The position numbers were made by a program, and so were the translations under genes. A stretch of DNA of 61,082 bases. Origin: Deltaproteobacteria bacterium. GTDB lineage: Bacteria; Desulfobacterota; Dissulfuribacteria; Dissulfuribacterales; QOAL01. Where the stretch lies: the NCBI GenBank assembly GCA_027067775.1, contig JAMOVK010000019.1, forward strand, positions 1 to 61,082. Direction: 5' to 3'. Shown piece after piece: positions 35,367 to 45,460 of this stretch. The notes under the pieces are model-generated. The model did not search any database, was not told the DNA's origin, and worked only from the letters and a program-made list of their open reading frames with translations. Numbering within the stretch: the stretch's first letter is position 1; the number at the start of each line of letters is the position of its first letter.

Positions 35367-36653
35367 TCACTCGTTTTGATTACATTCTTTCAAGGTTTCC
35401 TGATATCTCTGAAGCCTTGACTCGTATAGGGGAAATCTCTTGCATATCTCTAGCACCTTGCCCCTTACATCCTTTACCAGTGCTTCATTGCCAGGGTCAA
35501 GGAGTAGATCGGCTATAAAACCGCCTACAAGTCTGATTTCATCCTCTTTTAACCCTCTGGTAGTAACTGCCGGAGTGCCTATTCTGATGCCACTGGTAAC
35601 AGTTGGCGGCTGAGAGTCAAAGGGGATGGCATTTTTATTGACTGTTATGCCGGCCGACTCTAGGATTTTCTCAGCTTCTGCTCCGGTAATGGACTTGTCA
35701 GACAGATCCACAAGTATAAGGTGATTGTCCGTGCCCCCTGAAATCAGCCTGAATCCTCTTTCAATTAGTACATCTGCCAGGGTCTTGGCGTTTGATACGA
35801 TACGCTGGCAGTAAAATTTGAATTCGTCTCCAAGGGCCTCTTTGAAGGCTACGGCTTTTGCAGCAATTACATGCATAAGCGGGCCACCTTGGATCCCAGG
35901 GAAGATCTGGCTGTTGAGCAGTCTTGAATACTTTTCCGTTGAGAGAATGAAACCGCCCCTTGGTCCACGCAGGGTCTTGTGGGTGGTGGAGGTGACAAAC
36001 TCAGAAAAAGGGACCGGAGAAGGATGTATGCCCGCGGCCACAAGACCTGCAATATGTGCCATGTCCACCATGAGATAAGCGCCTACTTCGTCGGCGATCA
36101 TGCGGAAAGTGGCAAAATCAATGGTTCGTGGATAGGCGCTTGCACCTGCTACTATGAGTTTGGGCCGGTGTTCTCTTGCCAGCCGTGCCACTTGGTCAAA
36201 GTCTATGGTTTCGCTTTCTTTGTCTACCCCATAGTGTACTACATTAAAGAGCCTGCCTGAAAAGCTTACCGATGCCCCATGGGATAGATGCCCACCATGG
36301 GCAAGATTCATGGAAAGAATCGTGTCCCCCGGGTTAAGGACTGCAAAATAGACTGCCATGTTGGCCTGGCTTCCAGAATGTGGTTGCACATTGGCATATT
36401 CTGAGCCAAAAAGCATGTTAAGACGGTCTATGGCCAAACGTTCAACTACATCAACATTTTCGCAACCGCCATAGTAACGCCTGCCTGGATACCCCTCTGC
36501 GTATTTGTTCATGAATACGCTTCCTTCAGCCTGCATCACCGCTTCACTGGCGAAATTTTCAGAGGCTATCATCTCAAGTTGACTCGTTTGCCTGCCTATT
36601 TCTGCCTTAAGTGCCTTGAAAACCTCGTAATCAGTCTCACACAGCTCTTTCAT
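35367..36653 (-). CDS. glyA: Serine hydroxymethyltransferase
   Basis: [41 protein letters not shown]. Confidence 0.98.
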
Positions 36654-36686
36654 TTACACACCTGCCTAAGTCCAACTCAAGAACGA

Positions 36687-37124
36687 TTATTGTTCCTGGC
36701 TGTCAATTTGAGACAGACGTCTCGAATGTCTGCCGCCTTCAAAGGGGGTTGAAAGCCAGACCCTAACCATCTCAAGGGCGAGTCCAGGGCCTATAACCCG
36801 TCCACCCATGCAAAGAATATTGGAATCGTTGTGTCGTCTGCTCATCTCAGCTGTAAAAAGCTCATGGCACAGCGTAGCCCTGATCCCGGGAGTTCTGTTG
36901 GCGGCAATGGACATTCCAATGCCTGTTCCACAAATGAGGATCCCGCGTTCCGCCTTTCCACCTTTTATTAGAGAAACGACCTTTTTGGCCTGAACCGGGT
37001 AGTCAACAGAATCAGTGGAGAAACATCCAACATCTTCTACCTGGTGACCAAGTTCGGTCAGAAGGGGTTTCACCGCTTCTTTTAGTTCAAAGCCTCCGTG
37101 ATCAGAACCGATTGCAATTTTCAT
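36687..37124 (-). CDS. rpiB: Ribose-5-phosphate isomerase B
   Basis: [26 protein letters not shown]. Confidence 0.96.
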
Positions 37125-38397: not shown

Positions 38398-38634
38398 TTA
38401 TTTTTCCAGATGCTGCTTTACGTAATCAATGGTGTCCTGTACAGTCTGCAGCTTTTCGGCGTCTTCGTCGGCAATTTCCATACCAAACTCTTCTTCCATT
38501 GCCATGACAAGTTCCACAAGATCCAGGCTGTCTGCACCAAGGTCATCTGTAAAAGATGCCTGTGGCACCACCTTTTCCTTTGGTACGCTTAGCTGGCTTG
38601 AGATTATTTCAATAATTTTTTCCTGAACATCCAT
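38398..38634 (-). CDS. acpP: Acyl carrier protein
   Basis: [12 protein letters not shown] phosphopantetheine site. Confidence 0.97.
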
Positions 38635-38657
38635 TTTATTTCCTCCTGAAACATTTC

Positions 38658-39413
38658 TTATTGGCAGACCAAGCCGCCATTAACGTGCATTGTATGTCCT
38701 GTTATGTATGATGCCTCTTCCGAGGCCAAAAAGGCTACTGCAGCAGCAACCTCGCTTGTGTTTCCCATTCTTCCCATGGGAATCTCACCAAGAAGCCGGT
38801 CTTTGACTTTTTCTGGCAGTGCTGCCGTCATGTCTGTCTCGATAAAGCCAGGGGCCACCAGGTTGGAAGTTATGCCTCGGGTGGCCATCTCCTTTGCCAC
38901 GGTTTTGGTAAAGCCTTCAAGTCCTGCCTTGGCGGCTGCGTAGTTGGCCTGGCCAGGATTGCCCGAGGTACCAACTACAGAGCCGATGTTTATTATGCGT
39001 CCCCATCTGGCCTTCATCATAGCCCTGGAACAGGCTTGAACACAGTTAAAGGCCCCTTTTAGGTTGACTGAGATCACCTTGTCCCAGTCATCTTCCTTCA
39101 TCCTTGCAAGAAGAGCATCACGGGTAATGCCTGCATTGTTGATCAAAATCTGAATGGGGCCATGCTCTTTTATAAAACTAGATATTTTTTCTTTGACCTG
39201 GGATGTGTCAGAAACGTCAAATGGCAAAAGTGTGGCAGTTCCTCCCATATTTTCTATGGTATTAAGGACCTGTCTAGCTGCTTCTTCGTTTGAGGCGTAG
39301 TTAATGGCAACGTGCGCACCGTCTTCAGCAAGCCTCAGGCATATTGCCCTCCCTATACCCCTTGAGCCACCGGTGACAAGGGCATTTTTACCCTTTAGTC
39401 TTTTCTCACACAT
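38658..39413 (-). CDS. fabG: 3-oxoacyl-ACP reductase
   Basis: [26 protein letters not shown]; overlaps the etfA stop by 8 nt. Confidence 0.96.
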
Positions 39414-40617
39414 CTTTTACTCCACGCTCCTTGCAAATCTTTTTTATTAGTACAGGAAGTATCTCTTTGACATCTCCCACTATGGCATATGTGGCAACAT
39501 CAAAGATAGGGGCGTCTTTGTCCTTGTTTATTGCAACGATGATGTCAGAGCCCTGCATTCCTACAAGGTGCTGTATGGCCCCGCTTACGCCACATGCTAT
39601 GTACAGTTTTGGTGACACGGTTACTCCAGTCTGGCCAATCTGGTGGTTGGTTGAAATCCACCCTGCATCGGTGATAGCCCTTGTTGCACCTACTGCTGCA
39701 TCAAGACATTTGGCTAGCTTTTCCACAAGAGACAGATTCTCCTTTTTCTCAAGCCCTCTTCCTGCAGTAACAACTATTTCAGAATCGGTAAGACTTGGAC
39801 CATCCGATTCCTCTACTACAGAGTCCAAGACATTTATTTTGTGTTCAAGTAGTTCCTTTGTAGGCTCAAATTCTACAATCTCTCCCTTTCGATTCGTGTC
39901 TGGCGCCAGTGCCTTTAATACGTGAGGCCTTACAGTGGCCATCTGGGGCCTGTGCTCGTCACAAACTATGGTGGCCATAAGATTTCCACCAAAGGCAGGG
40001 CGTGTCTGCAAGAGGTTCCGTCCTTCTTCTTCGATCTCAAGGGCAGTGCAATCAGCAGTAAGGCCCGTCTCTAGCATTGTGGCGACTTGAGGAATGAAGG
40101 CCCTGCCCATGGCAGTTGCTCCTGCCAGTATAATCTCCGGTTTCTCTTTTGCAGCAATGTGGGCAACTATTTTTGAATAGACCTCGTCCATAAATTTGGA
40201 AAGATCTGGATGATCAACAACGATTACCCTGTCTGCTCCCCTGTAGACAAGCTCCTGAACTTTTTCCCTGATATTGCTTCCAATGGCAATGGCCGTCACC
40301 GATACAGAAAGGGCATCTGCAAGCTGCCTTGCCTTTCCAAGAAGTTCAAAGGTTACAGGGGCAAAGGAGCTTCCCCGCAACTCGGTTACCACCCATACAC
40401 CCTGCCAGGCCGAAAGATCCTTTTTGTCACCTGGTGCCTTGTCATCAGACTCTATTTCTAAGGCCCCTTCCGGACAGGTATCAACGCAGGTTCCACACAG
40501 GGTACACAGATCCTGGTCCACCTTTGCCTTTTCATCCGAGACGGTAATGGCACCAAAACTACATACCTCCTCACATTCTCCGCAACCGTTGCACCTTTTT
40601 AGATCTATTTTGAGCAT
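39406..40617 (-). CDS. etfA: Electron transfer flavoprotein alpha with N-terminal 2x[4Fe-4S] ferredoxin domain
   Basis: CNGCGECEEVC and CTLCGTCVDTCP, then GLTADCT, RPAFGGN, QIGQTG, GVSGAIQH. Confidence 0.95.
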   Translation of the reverse strand: MLKIDLKRCNGCGECEEVCSFGAITVSDEKAKVDQDLCTLCGTCVDTCPEGALEIESDDKAPGDKKDLSAWQGVWVVTELRGSSFAPVTFELLGKARQLADALSVSVTAIAIGSNIREKVQELVYRGADRVIVVDHPDLSKFMDEVYSKIVAHIAAKEKPEIILAGATAMGRAFIPQVATMLETGLTADCTALEIEEEGRNLLQTRPAFGGNLMATIVCDEHRPQMATVRPHVLKALAPDTNRKGEIVEFEPTKELLEHKINVLDSVVEESDGPSLTDSEIVVTAGRGLEKKENLSLVEKLAKCLDAAVGATRAITDAGWISTNHQIGQTGVTVSPKLYIACGVSGAIQHLVGMQGSDIIVAINKDKDAPIFDVATYAIVGDVKEILPVLIKKICKERGVKDV

Positions 40618-41405
40618 CAGATGATCCCTGCCTCTTTAAGTCTGTCTATCAAGGCCTGCGCCTGCTCTTCTGGTGTGCCATGCAGGAACTCCCTTTTTGC
40701 CTCAAACTTTGGGATATATGTGGAATGGACTTTGGTTGGCGAGCCGGCAAGGCCAATCTTTTCAGGTTCAGCACCTATGTCAGATGCACTCCACATGGGA
40801 ATTTGGGCCTTTTTTGCCCTCATCTTACCTTTTAACGAAGGCACCCTTGGTACGTTTAGGGATGACAAAACGGTCAACAGCACCGGAAAGGCAACTTCTA
40901 TAATATCATAGCCATTTTCACACATGCGTTTAAGCCTCAACCTCTTGCCATCTTCAACCACTTCCATTTCAGATACATAGGTGACACACGGGATACCAAG
41001 ACGAACGGCAAGCCCTGGGCCTACCTGTGCCGTATCTCCATCTATTGCCTGCTTACCGCAAAATACTGCATCCACATCACCCATCTTTTTTATTGCCTGG
41101 GCAAGGGTATAGGTGGTGGCCAGGGTATCTGCACCAGCAAATGCCCTGTCCGAGACCACGACACCTTCATCAACCCCCATTGACATAGCCTCTCTGATGG
41201 CGTCTTGGGCCTGTGGTGGCCCCATGGTAACTGCCGTTACCTTGCCGCCAAGGGTATCTTTGAGGCTGAGGGCCGCCTCTATGGCATGGTAGTCAAAGGG
41301 ATTTATGACACTTTTTACCCCATCTCTGATCAGTGTTCCTGTTTTGTGATCCCACTTGACACTTTCTGCATCGGGGACCTGTTTGATGCATACTACAATA
41401 TTCAT
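40617..41405 (-). CDS. etfB: Electron transfer flavoprotein beta
   Basis: VCIKQVPD, LIRDGVKSVINPFD, AGADTLAT, GKQAIDGDTAQVGP. Confidence 0.96.
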   Translation of the reverse strand: MNIVVCIKQVPDAESVKWDHKTGTLIRDGVKSVINPFDYHAIEAALSLKDTLGGKVTAVTMGPPQAQDAIREAMSMGVDEGVVVSDRAFAGADTLATTYTLAQAIKKMGDVDAVFCGKQAIDGDTAQVGPGLAVRLGIPCVTYVSEMEVVEDGKRLRLKRMCENGYDIIEVAFPVLLTVLSSLNVPRVPSLKGKMRAKKAQIPMWSASDIGAEPEKIGLAGSPTKVHSTYIPKFEAKREFLHGTPEEQAQALIDRLKEAGII

Positions 41406-41407
41406 GG

Positions 41408-42571
41408 CTATTTTCTTGCGTATTCTTTATTAAGGGCTTGGCCTATTACGTTTCTTTGTATCTGGTTTGTTCCTTCGTAAATTTGCAATATCTTGGCATC
41501 CCTCATCATCTTTTCTACTGGATATTCCTTCATGTATCCATAACCGCCAAGTATTTGAACAGCATCTGTCGTGACTTTCATGGCCACGTCTGTAGGAAAG
41601 AGTTTGGCCATGGCCGAGATCTTTGAGATGTCTTTTTCACCAGAATCAATCGTACGGGCCACTGCATAAACCAGCGCCCTAGCTGCCTCTATCTGGGTTG
41701 CCATATCTGCAAGCATGTGCTGTATGGCCTGAAAGGAGATTATTGGTTGACCAAACTGGACTCTCTGACGTGCATAGGTGACAGACTCGTCAAGGGCAGC
41801 TTGAGATAGTCCAACTCCTATGGCACCTATTCCAGGCCGGGCAAGGTCCAGGGTTCTCATTGCCAGTATAAACCCCAGGCCTCTGCGTCCAAGAAGCCTG
41901 TCTTTGGGAATGCGGCAGTCGTTAAAGATAAGTTCCCTTGTGGCAGAGGCACGAAGCCCCATCTTTTTTTCCTTTTTTCCAAAGCTGAAACCAGGGTCTC
42001 CCTTTTCAACAATAAAGGCTGATGCCCCCCGTGGCCCTTTGTTTTTGTCAGTCAGGGCAATTATTGTGTAGATTTCCGCCTCTCCTCCACTTGTTATCCA
42101 CTGTTTGGTTCCATTCAGTACCCAGTAGTCACCATCCTCAACAGCCGTGGTTTTTATGGCAGCTGCATCACTTCCTGCTCCAGCCTCGGTCAGACCAAAG
42201 GCAGCAAGTCTTGCTCCTGATGCAATGTCTGGCAGATATTTCTTTTTCTGTTCATCGGTTCCAAACATGACTATCGGATAGCCACCAAGTGCACTGGCTG
42301 CAAAGGTGGTGGTTACGGCAATGCACCCATATGCCAGCTGTTCCACCGCCAGGCAGTTTTCAAGGCATCCTCCACCAAGACCACCGTATTCTTCAGGGAT
42401 ATAGAGACCAAACAGGTCTGCCTGGGCCAGATCCTTCATGATATCCCAAGGAAACTCCTCTGTTTCGTCAAGTCTTGCTCTAACGGGAATAATCTTTTCA
42501 TGAGCGATCTGGCGGGCCAGATCCACTATCATCTGCTGTTCTTCAGTCAGAAAATAATTAACATTTGCCAT
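41408..42571 (-). CDS. Acyl-CoA dehydrogenase (butyryl-CoA dehydrogenase-like)
   Basis: FGLTEAGAGSDA, NGTKQWIT, KKMGLRAS, RVQFGQPI, QILGGYGY, IYEGTNQIQR (catalytic Glu). Confidence 0.95.
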   Translation of the reverse strand: MANVNYFLTEEQQMIVDLARQIAHEKIIPVRARLDETEEFPWDIMKDLAQADLFGLYIPEEYGGLGGGCLENCLAVEQLAYGCIAVTTTFAASALGGYPIVMFGTDEQKKKYLPDIASGARLAAFGLTEAGAGSDAAAIKTTAVEDGDYWVLNGTKQWITSGGEAEIYTIIALTDKNKGPRGASAFIVEKGDPGFSFGKKEKKMGLRASATRELIFNDCRIPKDRLLGRRGLGFILAMRTLDLARPGIGAIGVGLSQAALDESVTYARQRVQFGQPIISFQAIQHMLADMATQIEAARALVYAVARTIDSGEKDISKISAMAKLFPTDVAMKVTTDAVQILGGYGYMKEYPVEKMMRDAKILQIYEGTNQIQRNVIGQALNKEYARK

Positions 42572-42621
42572 TAAAAGCCCTCTCTTTCCCTTCTGCTATC
42601 AATGAATCCATGACTCAGAGC

Positions 42622-43596
42622 TTACCACTTAACTGTAACGCCTGCCCATGTAAAACCTCCTCCAAAAGAGATCATGAGCAACTTGTCTCCCGGCCTGAGT
42701 CTGCCTTGACGGTTGGCCTCATCCAAGGCAATGGGTATACTCGCCGCAGAGGTATTACCATACTTGTGAATATTGATAAAGACCTTGTCCTTTGGAAGGG
42801 ACAACCTTTCTCTAAGATGCTCCAAAATTCTTATGTTGGCCTGATGGGCTATTAAAAGATCCAGTTCTTCCATGGTCCAGCCAGAGGCATCTACTGCCTC
42901 AAAGGCCACAGACTCAAGGGCCTTAACAGCATGTTTAAATACGTCTCTGCCTTGCATTTCAATATATTGACACCCTTTTTTGCCATCTAAAGGGTAAGCA
43001 GTGCCATGCCCTCTGATGGTCAACAATTCCCAGAGGCTCCCGTCTGCATGAAGATGTGTAGAAACAATTCCCTCGTCTCCCTGGCTTCCAGAGACCACAG
43101 CAGCACCTGCACCATCTGCAAAAAGCACGCAGGTGGTTCTGTCTTGCCAGTTCGTTCTTCTGGAAAGGACTTCGCTTCCAATCACCAGGATTTTCATATC
43201 AGGTGAGCATCTCACGAACTTGTCTGCTACAGACAGGCTGTAGAGGAATCCGGAACAGGTGGCAGAAACATCCATGGCACCTGCCTTTCTGGCACCAAGG
43301 GCGTGCTGCACAAGGCAAGCCACCGAAGGCATAGGCATGTCGGGGGTGAGTGTGCCAACAATTATGAGATCCAGCTCTTCCGGCTCCACTTGAGCCATTT
43401 CCAAGGCGGCTCTGGCCGCCTTTACAGCAAGATCAGAATTGTTTTCCCCATCCTGTGCAATGTGTCTTTCTTTTATGCCCGTTCTTGTTGTGATCCATTC
43501 ATCACTTGTATCAATCATCGTTTCAAGGTCTTTGTTGGTAAGGACCTTTTCTGGTACAAATGACCCAGTTCCTAAGATTTTTGTCCTTGTTGTCAT
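42622..43596 (-). CDS. fabH: 3-oxoacyl-ACP synthase III
   Basis: Catalytic C (ATCSGF), H (HQAN), N (YGNTSAAS). Confidence 0.96.
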   Translation of the reverse strand: MTTRTKILGTGSFVPEKVLTNKDLETMIDTSDEWITTRTGIKERHIAQDGENNSDLAVKAARAALEMAQVEPEELDLIIVGTLTPDMPMPSVACLVQHALGARKAGAMDVSATCSGFLYSLSVADKFVRCSPDMKILVIGSEVLSRRTNWQDRTTCVLFADGAGAAVVSGSQGDEGIVSTHLHADGSLWELLTIRGHGTAYPLDGKKGCQYIEMQGRDVFKHAVKALESVAFEAVDASGWTMEELDLLIAHQANIRILEHLRERLSLPKDKVFINIHKYGNTSAASIPIALDEANRQGRLRPGDKLLMISFGGGFTWAGVTVKW

Positions 43597-43605
43597 GATG
43601 GAAAA

Positions 43606-44613
43606 TCAAATGATCCTGAGGATGTCCTTACGGTTGGACATGGACATTTCAAGCTTGTCTGCAAGATTAAGGGAGGCCAGATTATGGGCAATGCCTATGG
43701 CATTTTTCACTGCCTTTGGTTCAGAGCTTCCATGGCATATGATTGCTGTCCCTTTTACTCCCAAAAGGGGTGCACCACCATATTCAGCATAGTCAACCCG
43801 TTTCTTGAACCTCTTAAAGGCCTTTTTGGCAAGCCCGTAACCCATGGTTGCAAGGAAGTTGCCCTCGATCTCGTTTTTGAGCATGGCAATAACCGTCTCT
43901 GCCAGACCTTCACTAAGTTTCAGGCAGATATTGCCCACAAAGCCGTCACAGACAATCACATCCACATCTCCCTTAAAGACATCCCTGCCTTCCACATTGC
44001 CAAAGAAATTCAGTTTGCTGGCAGCAAGCAGATCATAGGCCTTTTTAACCTGCTGATTTCCCTTGCTGCCTTCCTCTCCAATACTCAGAAGCCCTACCTT
44101 AGGACTGTCCTTCTTTAAGAACTCCCTTACAAAAAGGGCTCCCATAATGCCAAACTGGAGGAGATGATGGGGTTTGCAGTCCACATTGGCGCCGACATCT
44201 ATTATAAGCGAAGGATCTTTTAGGGTTGGAACCAGTGTACCAATAGCAGGTCTGATACCCTTGATGCGGCCAAGAATAAACATAGCTGTAGCCAGGGTAG
44301 CTCCAGAATTACCTGCGCTTACCACTCCTTGGGCCTTGTCTTCCTTCACGAGATTGAAGGCCACCCTTACAGACGAATCTTTTTTTCTCCTCAGGGCATC
44401 AGATGGCGATTCAGCCATTCCTACCACCTGGGAAGCGTTTTTGATGGATATGGGCAGGCCTCTGCCTCCAGCCTCGGAAAGCTCTTTTTCCAAAAGAGTA
44501 GCCTTTCCCACCAGGATAATCTCGGTTCCAAGTTCCCTAGCGGCCTCGACTGCTCCTTTGACAAGTATGGAAGGGCCTTTGTCCCCTCCCATGGCATCAA
44601 GAGCTATGGCCAT
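43606..44613 (-). CDS. plsX: Phosphate acyltransferase PlsX
   Basis: IALDAMGGD, SAGNSGA, DVGANVD, CDGFVGN, HGSS. Confidence 0.97.
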   Translation of the reverse strand: MAIALDAMGGDKGPSILVKGAVEAARELGTEIILVGKATLLEKELSEAGGRGLPISIKNASQVVGMAESPSDALRRKKDSSVRVAFNLVKEDKAQGVVSAGNSGATLATAMFILGRIKGIRPAIGTLVPTLKDPSLIIDVGANVDCKPHHLLQFGIMGALFVREFLKKDSPKVGLLSIGEEGSKGNQQVKKAYDLLAASKLNFFGNVEGRDVFKGDVDVIVCDGFVGNICLKLSEGLAETVIAMLKNEIEGNFLATMGYGLAKKAFKRFKKRVDYAEYGGAPLLGVKGTAIICHGSSEPKAVKNAIGIAHNLASLNLADKLEMSMSNRKDILRII

Positions 44614-44619
44614 AATCCC

Positions 44620-44802
44620 TTATTCCACATCCTCACCGGTAAACACCTTGCCCTTGTATGTTCCGCAATGAGGGCAAATTCTGTGTGGAGCCTTGGGCTC
44701 AGCACATTGTGGACATGTGGATACTGCTGGTTTTTTAAGGGCATCATGAGAACGCCTGTTACCTCTTCTTGCCCTTGATACTTTTCTCTTGGGTACAGCC
44801 AT
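44620..44802 (-). CDS. rpmF: 50S ribosomal protein L32
   Basis: [19 protein letters not shown] with CxxC...CxxC. Confidence 0.97.
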
Positions 44803-44835: not shown

Positions 44836-45372
44836 TTATCCAGACATCTTGAGTTGTTTAAGAATCGCAAAGGGTCCCTGTTCTTCCTGCTCCGGACATT
44901 GACATTGTGTCTTGTTCAAGTCTGCACCACATCCCGGACACAGCCCTTTACATTCTTCGTTGCACAATATCCTCATAGGAAGCTGTAGCAGGATCTGCTC
45001 CCTGAAGAGTTCTTCACCCCGAATTTCACCATCTTCATACCAGTAGACTTCTATCTCGTCAGATGAAAGCTGATGATCAGGCGAGAGATCAGAACCAAAA
45101 TCAGATTTTGGCTGAAGAAAGTAGAAAAAGGAGGTTTCCACTTCTTTTGGGAAGCTGGTTAGGCACCTGTCACAACACAGATAGACAAGACTTTTTACCC
45201 ATCCATGTATTTCAATGTCGTTTCCCGATTTGTGGATTTCAAGTCGCCCCTGGGTGGTACCTATCTTTACAAACTCGTCCACTTCAGGAATGAGCTTTGA
45301 CAGTTCTGTAAAATTTAAAAAAAGCCCCTCTTCAGGGACATCTGATACCTGAATACGTGTTTCTATTTGCAT
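44836..45372 (-). CDS. YceD/DUF177-family protein
   Basis: CDRCL and CNEECKGLCPGCG motifs; upstream of rpmF. Start moved to 45372. Confidence 0.9.
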   Translation of the reverse strand: MQIETRIQVSDVPEEGLFLNFTELSKLIPEVDEFVKIGTTQGRLEIHKSGNDIEIHGWVKSLVYLCCDRCLTSFPKEVETSFFYFLQPKSDFGSDLSPDHQLSSDEIEVYWYEDGEIRGEELFREQILLQLPMRILCNEECKGLCPGCGADLNKTQCQCPEQEEQGPFAILKQLKMSG

Positions 45373-45432
45373 GTTTCTTCTTTTTGCCCTTTTGGCAAAA
45401 ACACTAAGATAAATTTTTATTAGAAAAGACAC

Positions 45433-45460
45433 AATATATGGCCTGGATAGCGCTTGTCAA
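45433..45460 (-). promoter_or_regulatory. sigma70-type promoter of the yceD-rpmF-plsX-fab operon
   Basis: Minus strand TTGACA-16 nt-TATATT. Confidence 0.6.

Follow-up and report, generated by a model that had tools for sequence, protein, structure and literature searches.

An acyl-CoA dehydrogenase and a bifurcating-type electron-transfer flavoprotein encoded in the fatty-acid synthesis operon of a hydrothermal-vent deltaproteobacterium: a candidate enoyl-ACP reductase

The 61,082-nt stretch of contig JAMOVK010000019.1 analysed here (the window) belongs to Deltaproteobacteria bacterium GCA_027067775.1, a hydrothermal-vent relative of sulfate reducers, and displays on its minus strand a fatty-acid synthesis (fab) operon that includes the genes of an acyl-CoA dehydrogenase (ACAD), acd, and of the two subunits of an electron-transfer flavoprotein (ETF), etfB and etfA. 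The Acd-EtfBA module is very probably a functional part of type II fatty-acid synthesis (FASII). The lack of any known reductase for enoyl thioesters of the acyl carrier protein (enoyl-ACP) in the genome, the presence of a single ACAD and a single ETF and the lack of a coenzyme A (CoA)-level pathway favour, by a modest balance of the genomic evidence, the assignment of Acd-EtfBA as the enoyl-ACP reductase of this organism. Electron bifurcation by the module is a real but less secure possibility suggested by homology. It is proposed more tentatively still that ACAD-EtfAB bifurcating complexes constitute a new structural and mechanistic class of enoyl-ACP reductase, with a housekeeping role in many Desulfobacterota and Nitrospirota.

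Organization of the fab operon

Open reading frames were named through their matches to NCBIfam and Pfam profiles, which gave the minus-strand order yceD-rpmF-plsX-fabH-acd-etfB-etfA-fabG-acpP-fabF-rpiB-glyA. The genes of the module are tightly packed: acd and etfB stand 2 nt apart, etfB and etfA share 1 nt, and etfA runs 8 nt into fabG. Both the order plsX-fabH-[acd-etfB-etfA]-fabG-acpP-fabF and the three junction sizes agree with an initial annotation made from the sequence alone. The same annotation had reported fabD, fabI, fabK, fabV and fabZ to be missing from the window, and indeed no fabD, no fabZ and no known enoyl-ACP reductase gene was found within it. The features of the operon, with positions in the window, are the following.

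41408..42571, minus strand: acd, Bcd-like acyl-thioester dehydrogenase, candidate catalytic subunit of an enoyl-ACP reductase; three ACAD domains; sole ACAD of the genome
40617..41405, minus strand: etfB, small subunit of a bifurcating-type ETF; best matches are bifurcating EtfBs
39406..40617, minus strand: etfA with an N-terminal 2x[4Fe-4S] ferredoxin domain, CarE-like; Fer4, ETF and ETF_alpha domains
38658..39413, minus strand: fabG, 3-oxoacyl-ACP reductase; TIGR01830, 346 bits (cut-off 298); first 8 nt shared with the end of etfA
38398..38634, minus strand: acpP, acyl carrier protein; TIGR00517, 106 bits
37129..38379, minus strand: fabF, ketoacyl-ACP synthase II; TIGR03150, 665 bits; sole copy of the genome; outside 38398-44613
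35367..37124, minus strand: rpiB and glyA, conserved tail of the backbone; NCBIfam; syntenic in carriers and non-carriers of the module alike
42622..43596, minus strand: fabH, ketoacyl-ACP synthase III; NF006829, 437 bits; sole copy of the genome (single tblastn match)
43606..44613, minus strand: plsX, phosphate acyltransferase; TIGR00182, 362 bits against a cut-off of 243
44620..44802, minus strand: rpmF, ribosomal protein L32 (60 aa); read straight from the sequence
44836..45432, minus strand: yceD (DUF177), first gene of the backbone; weak YceD match (1e-09); syntenic in 45 of 80 loci
45433..45460, minus strand: sigma-70-like promoter candidate TTGACA-16-TATATT directly upstream of yceD; 11 of 12 consensus positions matched, a consensus match only

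The rpmF gene, located between yceD and plsX, is below the size limit of the list of open reading frames and was absent from the initial annotation. A scan of the region for promoters and terminators returned a number of sites equal to the shuffle expectation and is thus uninformative about signals inside the operon.

Acd, EtfB and EtfA resemble the subunits of bifurcating complexes

Acd comprises the N-terminal, middle and C-terminal ACAD domains (PF02771, PF02770 and PF00441; Pfam) and finds its best PDB match in 5OL2_C, the butyryl-CoA dehydrogenase (Bcd) of the C. difficile EtfAB/Bcd complex (7e-120, ~53% identity). The catalytic Glu is kept within the sequence IYEGT, aligned with the Bcd Glu. 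Similarly, Acd residues W158, E201, Y344, E349 and Y350 align with F155, E198, Y340, D345 and Y346 of Bcd, the residues to which the EtfA domain II contact and the flavin bridge are assigned (PMC5691135). Acd remains below the cut-off of the NCBIfam equivalogs, with 455 of 640 bits for AcrC, 383 of 650 for cyclohexane-1-carbonyl-CoA dehydrogenase and 298 of 470 for glutaryl-CoA dehydrogenase; the models of ACADs that act on carrier proteins give 67.5 bits against a cut-off of 700 (MbtN), 267 against 650 (RedW) and 238 against 500 (PigA).

The matches of EtfB are dominated by bifurcating proteins, namely CarD (3.5e-73) and the EtfBs of T. maritima, C. difficile and A. fermentans together with LctB (1e-63 to 1e-68), while non-bifurcating ETFs match more weakly (1e-22 to 1e-26). 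EtfB contains the motifs CIKQVPD and GKQAIDGDTAQVGP. By these signatures EtfB fits the type predicted to bind flavin adenine dinucleotide (FAD), not AMP, together with NADH. EtfA matches CarE (6FAH_A) over residues 3-396 (6e-114); its Fer4 domains occupy residues 2-56 with two CxxCxxCxxxC motifs and are followed by the ETF and ETF_alpha domains. By sequence it conforms to the EtfA of bifurcating complexes, whose mobile α-FAD domain docks on the dehydrogenase, and the docking residues on the Acd side are kept. Because of the matches to Bcd, to bifurcating EtfBs and to full-length CarE, Acd-EtfB-EtfA is predicted by homology to form a CarCDE- or Bcd/EtfAB-like complex.

Enoyl-thioester enzymes encoded by the genome

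The assembly (2.4 Mb, 165 contigs) has a rated completeness of 99.97%. The initial annotation had proposed a genome-wide search for fabI, fabK, fabV, fabL and fabD, by which fabD was located outside the window (contig C77:5151-6095) and none of the reductases was found. A query with E. coli FabI matched FabG alone, and profile PF13561 recovered only FabG and one odd short-chain dehydrogenase/reductase (SDR) in the genome, with no FabI/FabL-type reductase. FabV was not found in the genome with model PF12241, by which the positive control G136 matched at 2e-107; this model was used instead of PF12242, which gave nothing, controls included. Queries of the genome with medium-chain dehydrogenases/reductases (E. 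coli QorA and YhdH) and with the old yellow enzyme NemA returned no homologues. There is no FabK in the genome either, the sole protein of the nitronate monooxygenase (NMO) family (C135:3408-4535) reaching 136 bits against the FabK cut-off of 453. The remaining FASII gene, fabZ, is located in an lpxD-fabZ-lpxA cluster on contig C123. At the fabD locus (C77:4699-6095, equivalent to L001:1043-2439) the fabD start shares 1 nt with the stop of a gene for a GcvH-like protein (150 aa, acidic tail), which suggests a link of malonyl or octanoyl-ACP supply with lipoyl-carrier proteins.

The NMO-family protein was rejected as FabK and is instead an orthologue of FabX. It matches H. pylori FabX (7E1Q) at 6e-88 over residues 13-360 and keeps the catalytic His (GGH) and the four-Cys [4Fe-4S] motif (C-x3-C-x3-C...C). 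FabX of H. pylori is a decanoyl-ACP dehydrogenase/isomerase of unsaturated fatty-acid synthesis and not a reductase (PMC8626469). Its reported need for O2 as final electron acceptor stands beside the occurrence of the orthologue (L002:1450-2577) in a strictly anaerobic vent bacterium, where the gene lies downstream of sulfite-reductase/hydrogenase-like Fe-S genes and is convergent with a branched-chain aminotransferase gene.

Enzymes of CoA-level metabolism were similarly missing. Queries of the genome with E. coli FadA, PaaJ, PaaF, PaaG, PaaH and FadB gave no matches, the crotonase model reached 18 bits at most and the 3HCDH_N model gave nothing. The genome thus holds no thiolase, no crotonase and no 3-hydroxyacyl-CoA dehydrogenase, and neither CoA-level β-oxidation nor a crotonyl-CoA pathway. 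As these enzymes were not found, the enoyl-ACP made by FabZ is the sole enoyl thioester predicted in the cell. Exactly one ACAD, one EtfA and one EtfB are encoded, so that besides FabX the only dedicated enoyl/acyl oxidoreductase is the one in the fab operon. A closed chromosome from the same order (G097) displays the same operon and the same absences, which are therefore not an artefact of assembly. With one ACAD, one ETF, no β-oxidation and no other known reductase, the genome constitutes an unusually clean test case.

The odd SDR (C71:20398-21282) is conserved in 11 of 11 genomes of the order of the source organism and has homologues in 2 unrelated genomes that lack both the module and a recognised reductase; it was not found in any of the 41 tested reductase-less carriers outside this order (41/41). 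The protein resembles FabG-type enzymes, and an Asn (YSMSN) stands at the position of the catalytic Lys. Models of FabI and FabL are not among its top family matches, and the gene next to it encodes a 7TMR-DISM hybrid sensor kinase, not a lipid enzyme. An identity as FabI or FabL is thus not supported by the family matches, and the protein stays a minor rival owing to its conservation across the order.

Conservation of the block

Acd at ≥70% identity was recovered from more than 592 genomes in a scan of species-representative genomes, with holders in Desulfobulbales (including Electrothrix), Thermodesulfobacteria, Desulfobacca, Syntrophobacteraceae, Desulfofervidaceae and Thermodesulfovibrionia. 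In 80 loci fetched for comparison, many of the incomplete ones ending at contig edges, fab genes adjoin acd in 59, of which 55 also have etfBA, and the full order fabH-acd-etfB-etfA-(fabD)-fabG-acpP-fabF is present in 39. The gene arrangement is strongly non-random, since the order recurs across the fetched loci. Several Nitrospirota read fabH-acd-etfB-etfA-fabD-fabG, four loci carry acd-etfB-etfA-fabD alone, and phylum genomes without an Acd orthologue share the same backbone in the form yceD-plsX-fabH-fabD-fabG-acpP-fabF-rpiB-glyA. From the order in the loci that keep fabD and from the backbone shared with non-carriers, the block is concluded to be an old insertion between fabH and fabD, with fabD secondarily relocated in the source lineage. 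The initial description of the block as occupying the fabD slot is thus imprecise: fabD is indeed missing here, but the block was inserted before fabD, which moved away later. The block is kept across Desulfobacterota and Nitrospirota and is not a lineage-specific insertion.

Variants of the arrangement were also observed. In some Thermodesulfovibrionales (L042:4917-8158 and L023:4880-11202), the gene of an Acd of ~73% identity comes after those of a Zn-dependent alcohol dehydrogenase and a DeoC-family aldolase, not after fabH, and loci of this type occur with or without etfBA-fabD. Four closed genomes of 1.5-1.8 Mb (G026, G064, G095 and G238, loci L112-L115; family f34) carry acd-etfB-etfA outside the fab operon, with an Acd of ~60% identity and an EtfA that aligns over ~300 residues only, which suggests that the ferredoxin domain is lacking. 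No FabI, NMO or 3HCDH was found in these four genomes, nor FabV in G026, G064 and G095. In G277 a partial acd (L100:8525-9250; 726 nt, 69% identity) lies between plsX and fabD, with fabH, etfBA and fabG missing; this points either to decay of a block copy or to an error of assembly. A restriction of acd loss within families to genomes with FabK was considered and dropped, the apparent losses in G227 and G277 being explained by a truncated contig and by the partial acd next to plsX.

Distribution of reductases across the phylum

Among 301 genomes of the phylum, 150 are carriers with an Acd orthologue at E ≤1e-148 (59-100% identity), the rest having generic ACADs or none. True FabI was counted at E ≤1e-50 and strong FabK-like proteins at better than 1e-45. 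FabI is present in 2/150 carriers and in 45/147 non-carriers (p = 1e-13, kinship ignored), and neither FabI nor a FabK-like protein is found in 73/150 carriers, compared with 28/147 non-carriers (p = 6e-8, with kinship again ignored). FabI, FabI-like SDRs and FabK-like proteins better than 1e-45 are all missing from these 73 carriers. The NMO protein is wholly missing in 49 carriers, and FabV (PF12241) was not found in 51 of the 52 carriers tested. A 3-hydroxyacyl-CoA dehydrogenase was not found in 39 of the 80 carriers tested, which include all of the order of the source organism and families f13, f23, f34, f42 and f51. At least 17 carriers have no ACAD candidate other than the Acd orthologue. 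Non-carriers devoid of a recognised reductase (L091, L092, L094 and L098, for example) display the canonical plsX-fabH-fabD-fabG-acpP-fabF order and have no acd orthologue, FabI, strong FabK-like protein or FabV. The anti-correlation with enoyl-ACP reductases that the initial annotation had put forward as a check is thus observed for FabI, but it is not clean overall, with 56 carriers that have FabK-like genes and 28 reductase-less non-carriers.

Proposed reaction

Acd, EtfB and the ferredoxin-domain EtfA would constitute a flavoprotein complex recruited to FASII, which probably reduces trans-2-enoyl-ACP to acyl-ACP in each elongation cycle. The electron path is proposed on the basis of the homology to bifurcating complexes. 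NADH would reduce the β-FAD of EtfB, from which one electron would pass through the α-FAD of EtfA and the FAD of Acd to the enoyl thioester, while ferredoxin or flavodoxin would receive the other by way of the paired [4Fe-4S] clusters of EtfA. Reduced ferredoxin would thereby be a further product, one per elongation cycle, with 2 NADH oxidised. The thermodynamics are taken to be those of crotonyl-CoA, with potentials of -10 mV (thioester couple), -320 mV (NADH) and ~-405 mV (ferredoxin) (PMC5691135). The substrate would be an ACP and not a CoA thioester, acted upon in the reductive direction over a chain range of C4 to C16/18. Acd is an ACAD, homologous neither to FabI, FabL and FabV (SDR) nor to FabK (NMO), and as a reductase it would form a new structural class rather than a member of a known one. 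An enoyl reductase replacing FabI, which the initial annotation had envisaged as possibly energy-conserving, is partly supported by comparative genomics: the genome has no known reductase, a sole ACAD and ETF and no CoA-level pathway, while the FabK-like genes of the 56 carriers count on the other side.

Alternative explanations

Several observations weigh against Acd-EtfBA as an enoyl-ACP reductase. The Acd sequence shares 53% identity with a genuine butyryl-CoA dehydrogenase and carries no mark of ACP binding or of a long-chain pocket. In about 20 of the 80 loci, mostly from Nitrospirota, acd is placed away from fab genes and adjoins genes of a Zn-dependent alcohol dehydrogenase and a DeoC aldolase. 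Strong FabK-like genes occur in 56/150 carriers and FabI-like SDRs in 17, and in one case (L032:12155-13132) the gene of a 326-aa FabK-like NMO protein is found between acpP and fabF, in the same operon as acd-etfB-etfA-fabD; the module is thus not simply a replacement. This locus, from a metagenome-assembled genome labelled as an actinobacterium, combines two putative reductase systems in one operon. A recognised reductase is also lacking in 28/147 non-carriers, so that detection is incomplete and unrecognised reductases exist in the phylum that could serve here too. The phylum-wide search did not separate FabL from other SDRs, and the comparison of 150 carriers with 147 non-carriers gives p values that ignore kinship among genomes. 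The order of the source organism has two further candidates, the FabX homologue and the atypical SDR. The only sequencing run with this stretch is a DNA run of a hydrothermal-vent metagenome, and the reductase role is a prediction from comparative genomics.

In the first alternative explanation another protein reduces enoyl-ACP, be it the FabX homologue running in reverse with ferredoxin, the atypical SDR or a member of an unrecognised class, and Acd-EtfBA has a different FASII-linked role, which could be the oxidative dehydrogenation of acyl-ACP ("backtracking") for unsaturated or modified lipids. The FabX orthologue, with its flavin mononucleotide (FMN) and [4Fe-4S] motifs, belongs to the FabK superfamily (PMC8626469), the SDR is kept in all 11 genomes of the order and in 2 reductase-less non-carriers, and the reductase-less non-carriers and the FabK-like genes that coexist with the block, once within the operon, point the same way. 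Neither FabX nor the SDR is the general solution, however, since 49 carriers have no NMO protein and the SDR is missing from the 41/41 tested carriers outside the order; both are minor rivals, for the order of the source organism only. Against the SDR count in addition its FabG-type character, the Asn for the catalytic Lys and a sensor kinase for a neighbour. FabX acts in H. pylori as a dehydrogenase/isomerase alongside FabI and not as a reductase (PMC8626469), and beside it another dehydrogenase for backtracking would be redundant. Taken together, this explanation is rather unlikely, although it deserves to be carried along. Far more improbable is ordinary activity at the CoA level, be it as a Bcd/EtfAB crotonyl-CoA reductase priming FabH with butyryl or branched units or as a catabolic acyl-CoA dehydrogenase that happens to lie beside fab genes. 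The best matches of Acd are indeed true acyl-CoA dehydrogenases and reductases (Bcd 5OL2_C, 7e-120; AcrC model, 455 bits), and the adjacent FabH uses acyl-CoA primers. Yet without thiolase, crotonase and 3-hydroxyacyl-CoA dehydrogenase nothing in this genome makes or consumes enoyl-CoA, 39/80 carriers likewise have no 3-hydroxyacyl-CoA dehydrogenase, and Acd is under every NCBIfam equivalog cut-off. The tight coupling into fabG and the position kept across two phyla are not expected of a chance neighbour. The supply of short or branched acyl-CoA primers to FabH, the second role that the initial annotation had offered, is thus not supported, there being no thiolase, Hbd or crotonase to make the enoyl-CoA, and for lack of a CoA-level pathway both the primer-supply and the catabolic readings are close to excluded in this genome.

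Acd-EtfBA may also be an enoyl-ACP reductase that does not bifurcate, with linear flow, for instance from reduced ferredoxin through the [4Fe-4S] clusters and the ETF flavins to Acd, or with NADH alone as donor, and no energy conservation. The fused ferredoxin domain could equally be an entry or an exit port, crossed flavin potentials cannot be read from sequence, and the EtfA of the small family f34 genomes aligns without this domain. In contrast, EtfB and EtfA match bifurcating ETFs at least 40 orders of magnitude better than non-bifurcating ETFs, the β-FAD motif is kept, and CarCDE, with the same fused domain, has been characterised as bifurcating (by its PDB entry name and established knowledge). 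Linear flow is thus an improbable account of the module.

Significance

Enoyl-ACP reduction pulls FASII forward and is a classic antibiotic target. FabI, FabL, FabV and FabK dissipate as heat the large difference in potential between NAD(P)H and the enoyl thioester. A bifurcating ACAD/ETF reductase, if real, would add a further, unrelated class to these enzymes, and no anabolic housekeeping pathway before FASII would have been shown to regain this energy in the form of reduced ferredoxin. For anaerobes living close to the thermodynamic limit, the synthesis of membrane lipids would in that case conserve energy in part. Such an enzyme would also explain why an annotated reductase is missing in many sulfate reducers, relatives of cable bacteria and Thermodesulfovibrionia, and possibly the hydrogen-isotope signatures of lipids in those groups, as well as the routine mis-annotation of these genes as butyrate or β-oxidation functions in metabolic reconstructions.

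Comparison with known systems

A full-text literature search found no paper with ACAD/ETF genes in a fab operon or naming a reductase of this kind. The module is by homology a variant of the bifurcating-type complex and would, if confirmed, define a new class of reductase. The same three-subunit design is displayed by CarCDE, the caffeyl-CoA reductase-Etf of Acetobacterium woodii (6FAH), with EtfA matching CarE at 6e-114, EtfB matching CarD at 3.5e-73 and Acd matching CarC at 2e-95. CarC reduces phenylacrylyl-CoA in caffeate respiration, and the car genes are found with CoA-activation genes. Here, in contrast, the genes are part of a FASII operon, in a genome without a CoA-level enoyl pathway, and Acd resembles CarC less than it does Bcd. 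The Bcd-EtfAB complex (C. difficile 5OL2; A. fermentans 4KPU) includes the nearest solved relative of Acd, and the catalytic Glu, the ETF-docking residues and the bifurcating-type ETF are common to both systems. Bcd operons carry thl-hbd-crt, which are not in this genome; the EtfA described here has an added ferredoxin domain, and enoyl-ACP of every chain length is proposed as its substrate in place of a CoA ester.

The natural-product enzymes MbtN and RedW/PigA illustrate that thioesters of carrier proteins are accessible to the ACAD fold; they are oxidative and have no coupling to a bifurcating ETF, and Acd is far below their models. A precedent for a flavin and [4Fe-4S] enzyme working on the acyl/enoyl-ACP couple in FASII is H. 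pylori FabX, of which the genome has an orthologue, although FabX differs from the Acd module in its fold, its oxidative direction, its C10 specificity and its service to unsaturated fatty acids rather than bulk reduction (PMC8626469). The bacterial enoyl reductases listed in a 2022 review are FabI, FabV, FabL, FabL2/FabI2/FabMG and FabK, with no mention of acyl-CoA dehydrogenase, ferredoxin or electron transfer. The known enzymes, FabI, FabL/L2 and FabV of the SDR family and FabK with FMN in the NMO fold, are alike with the Acd module in the proposed reaction and in the position within fab clusters, and FabK is a flavoenzyme often encoded among fab genes, as is the module. In contrast, the Acd module would have an unrelated fold (ACAD and ETF) with three subunits, three FAD and two Fe-S clusters, and would deliver single electrons where the known enoyl-ACP reductases transfer a hydride from NAD(P)H.

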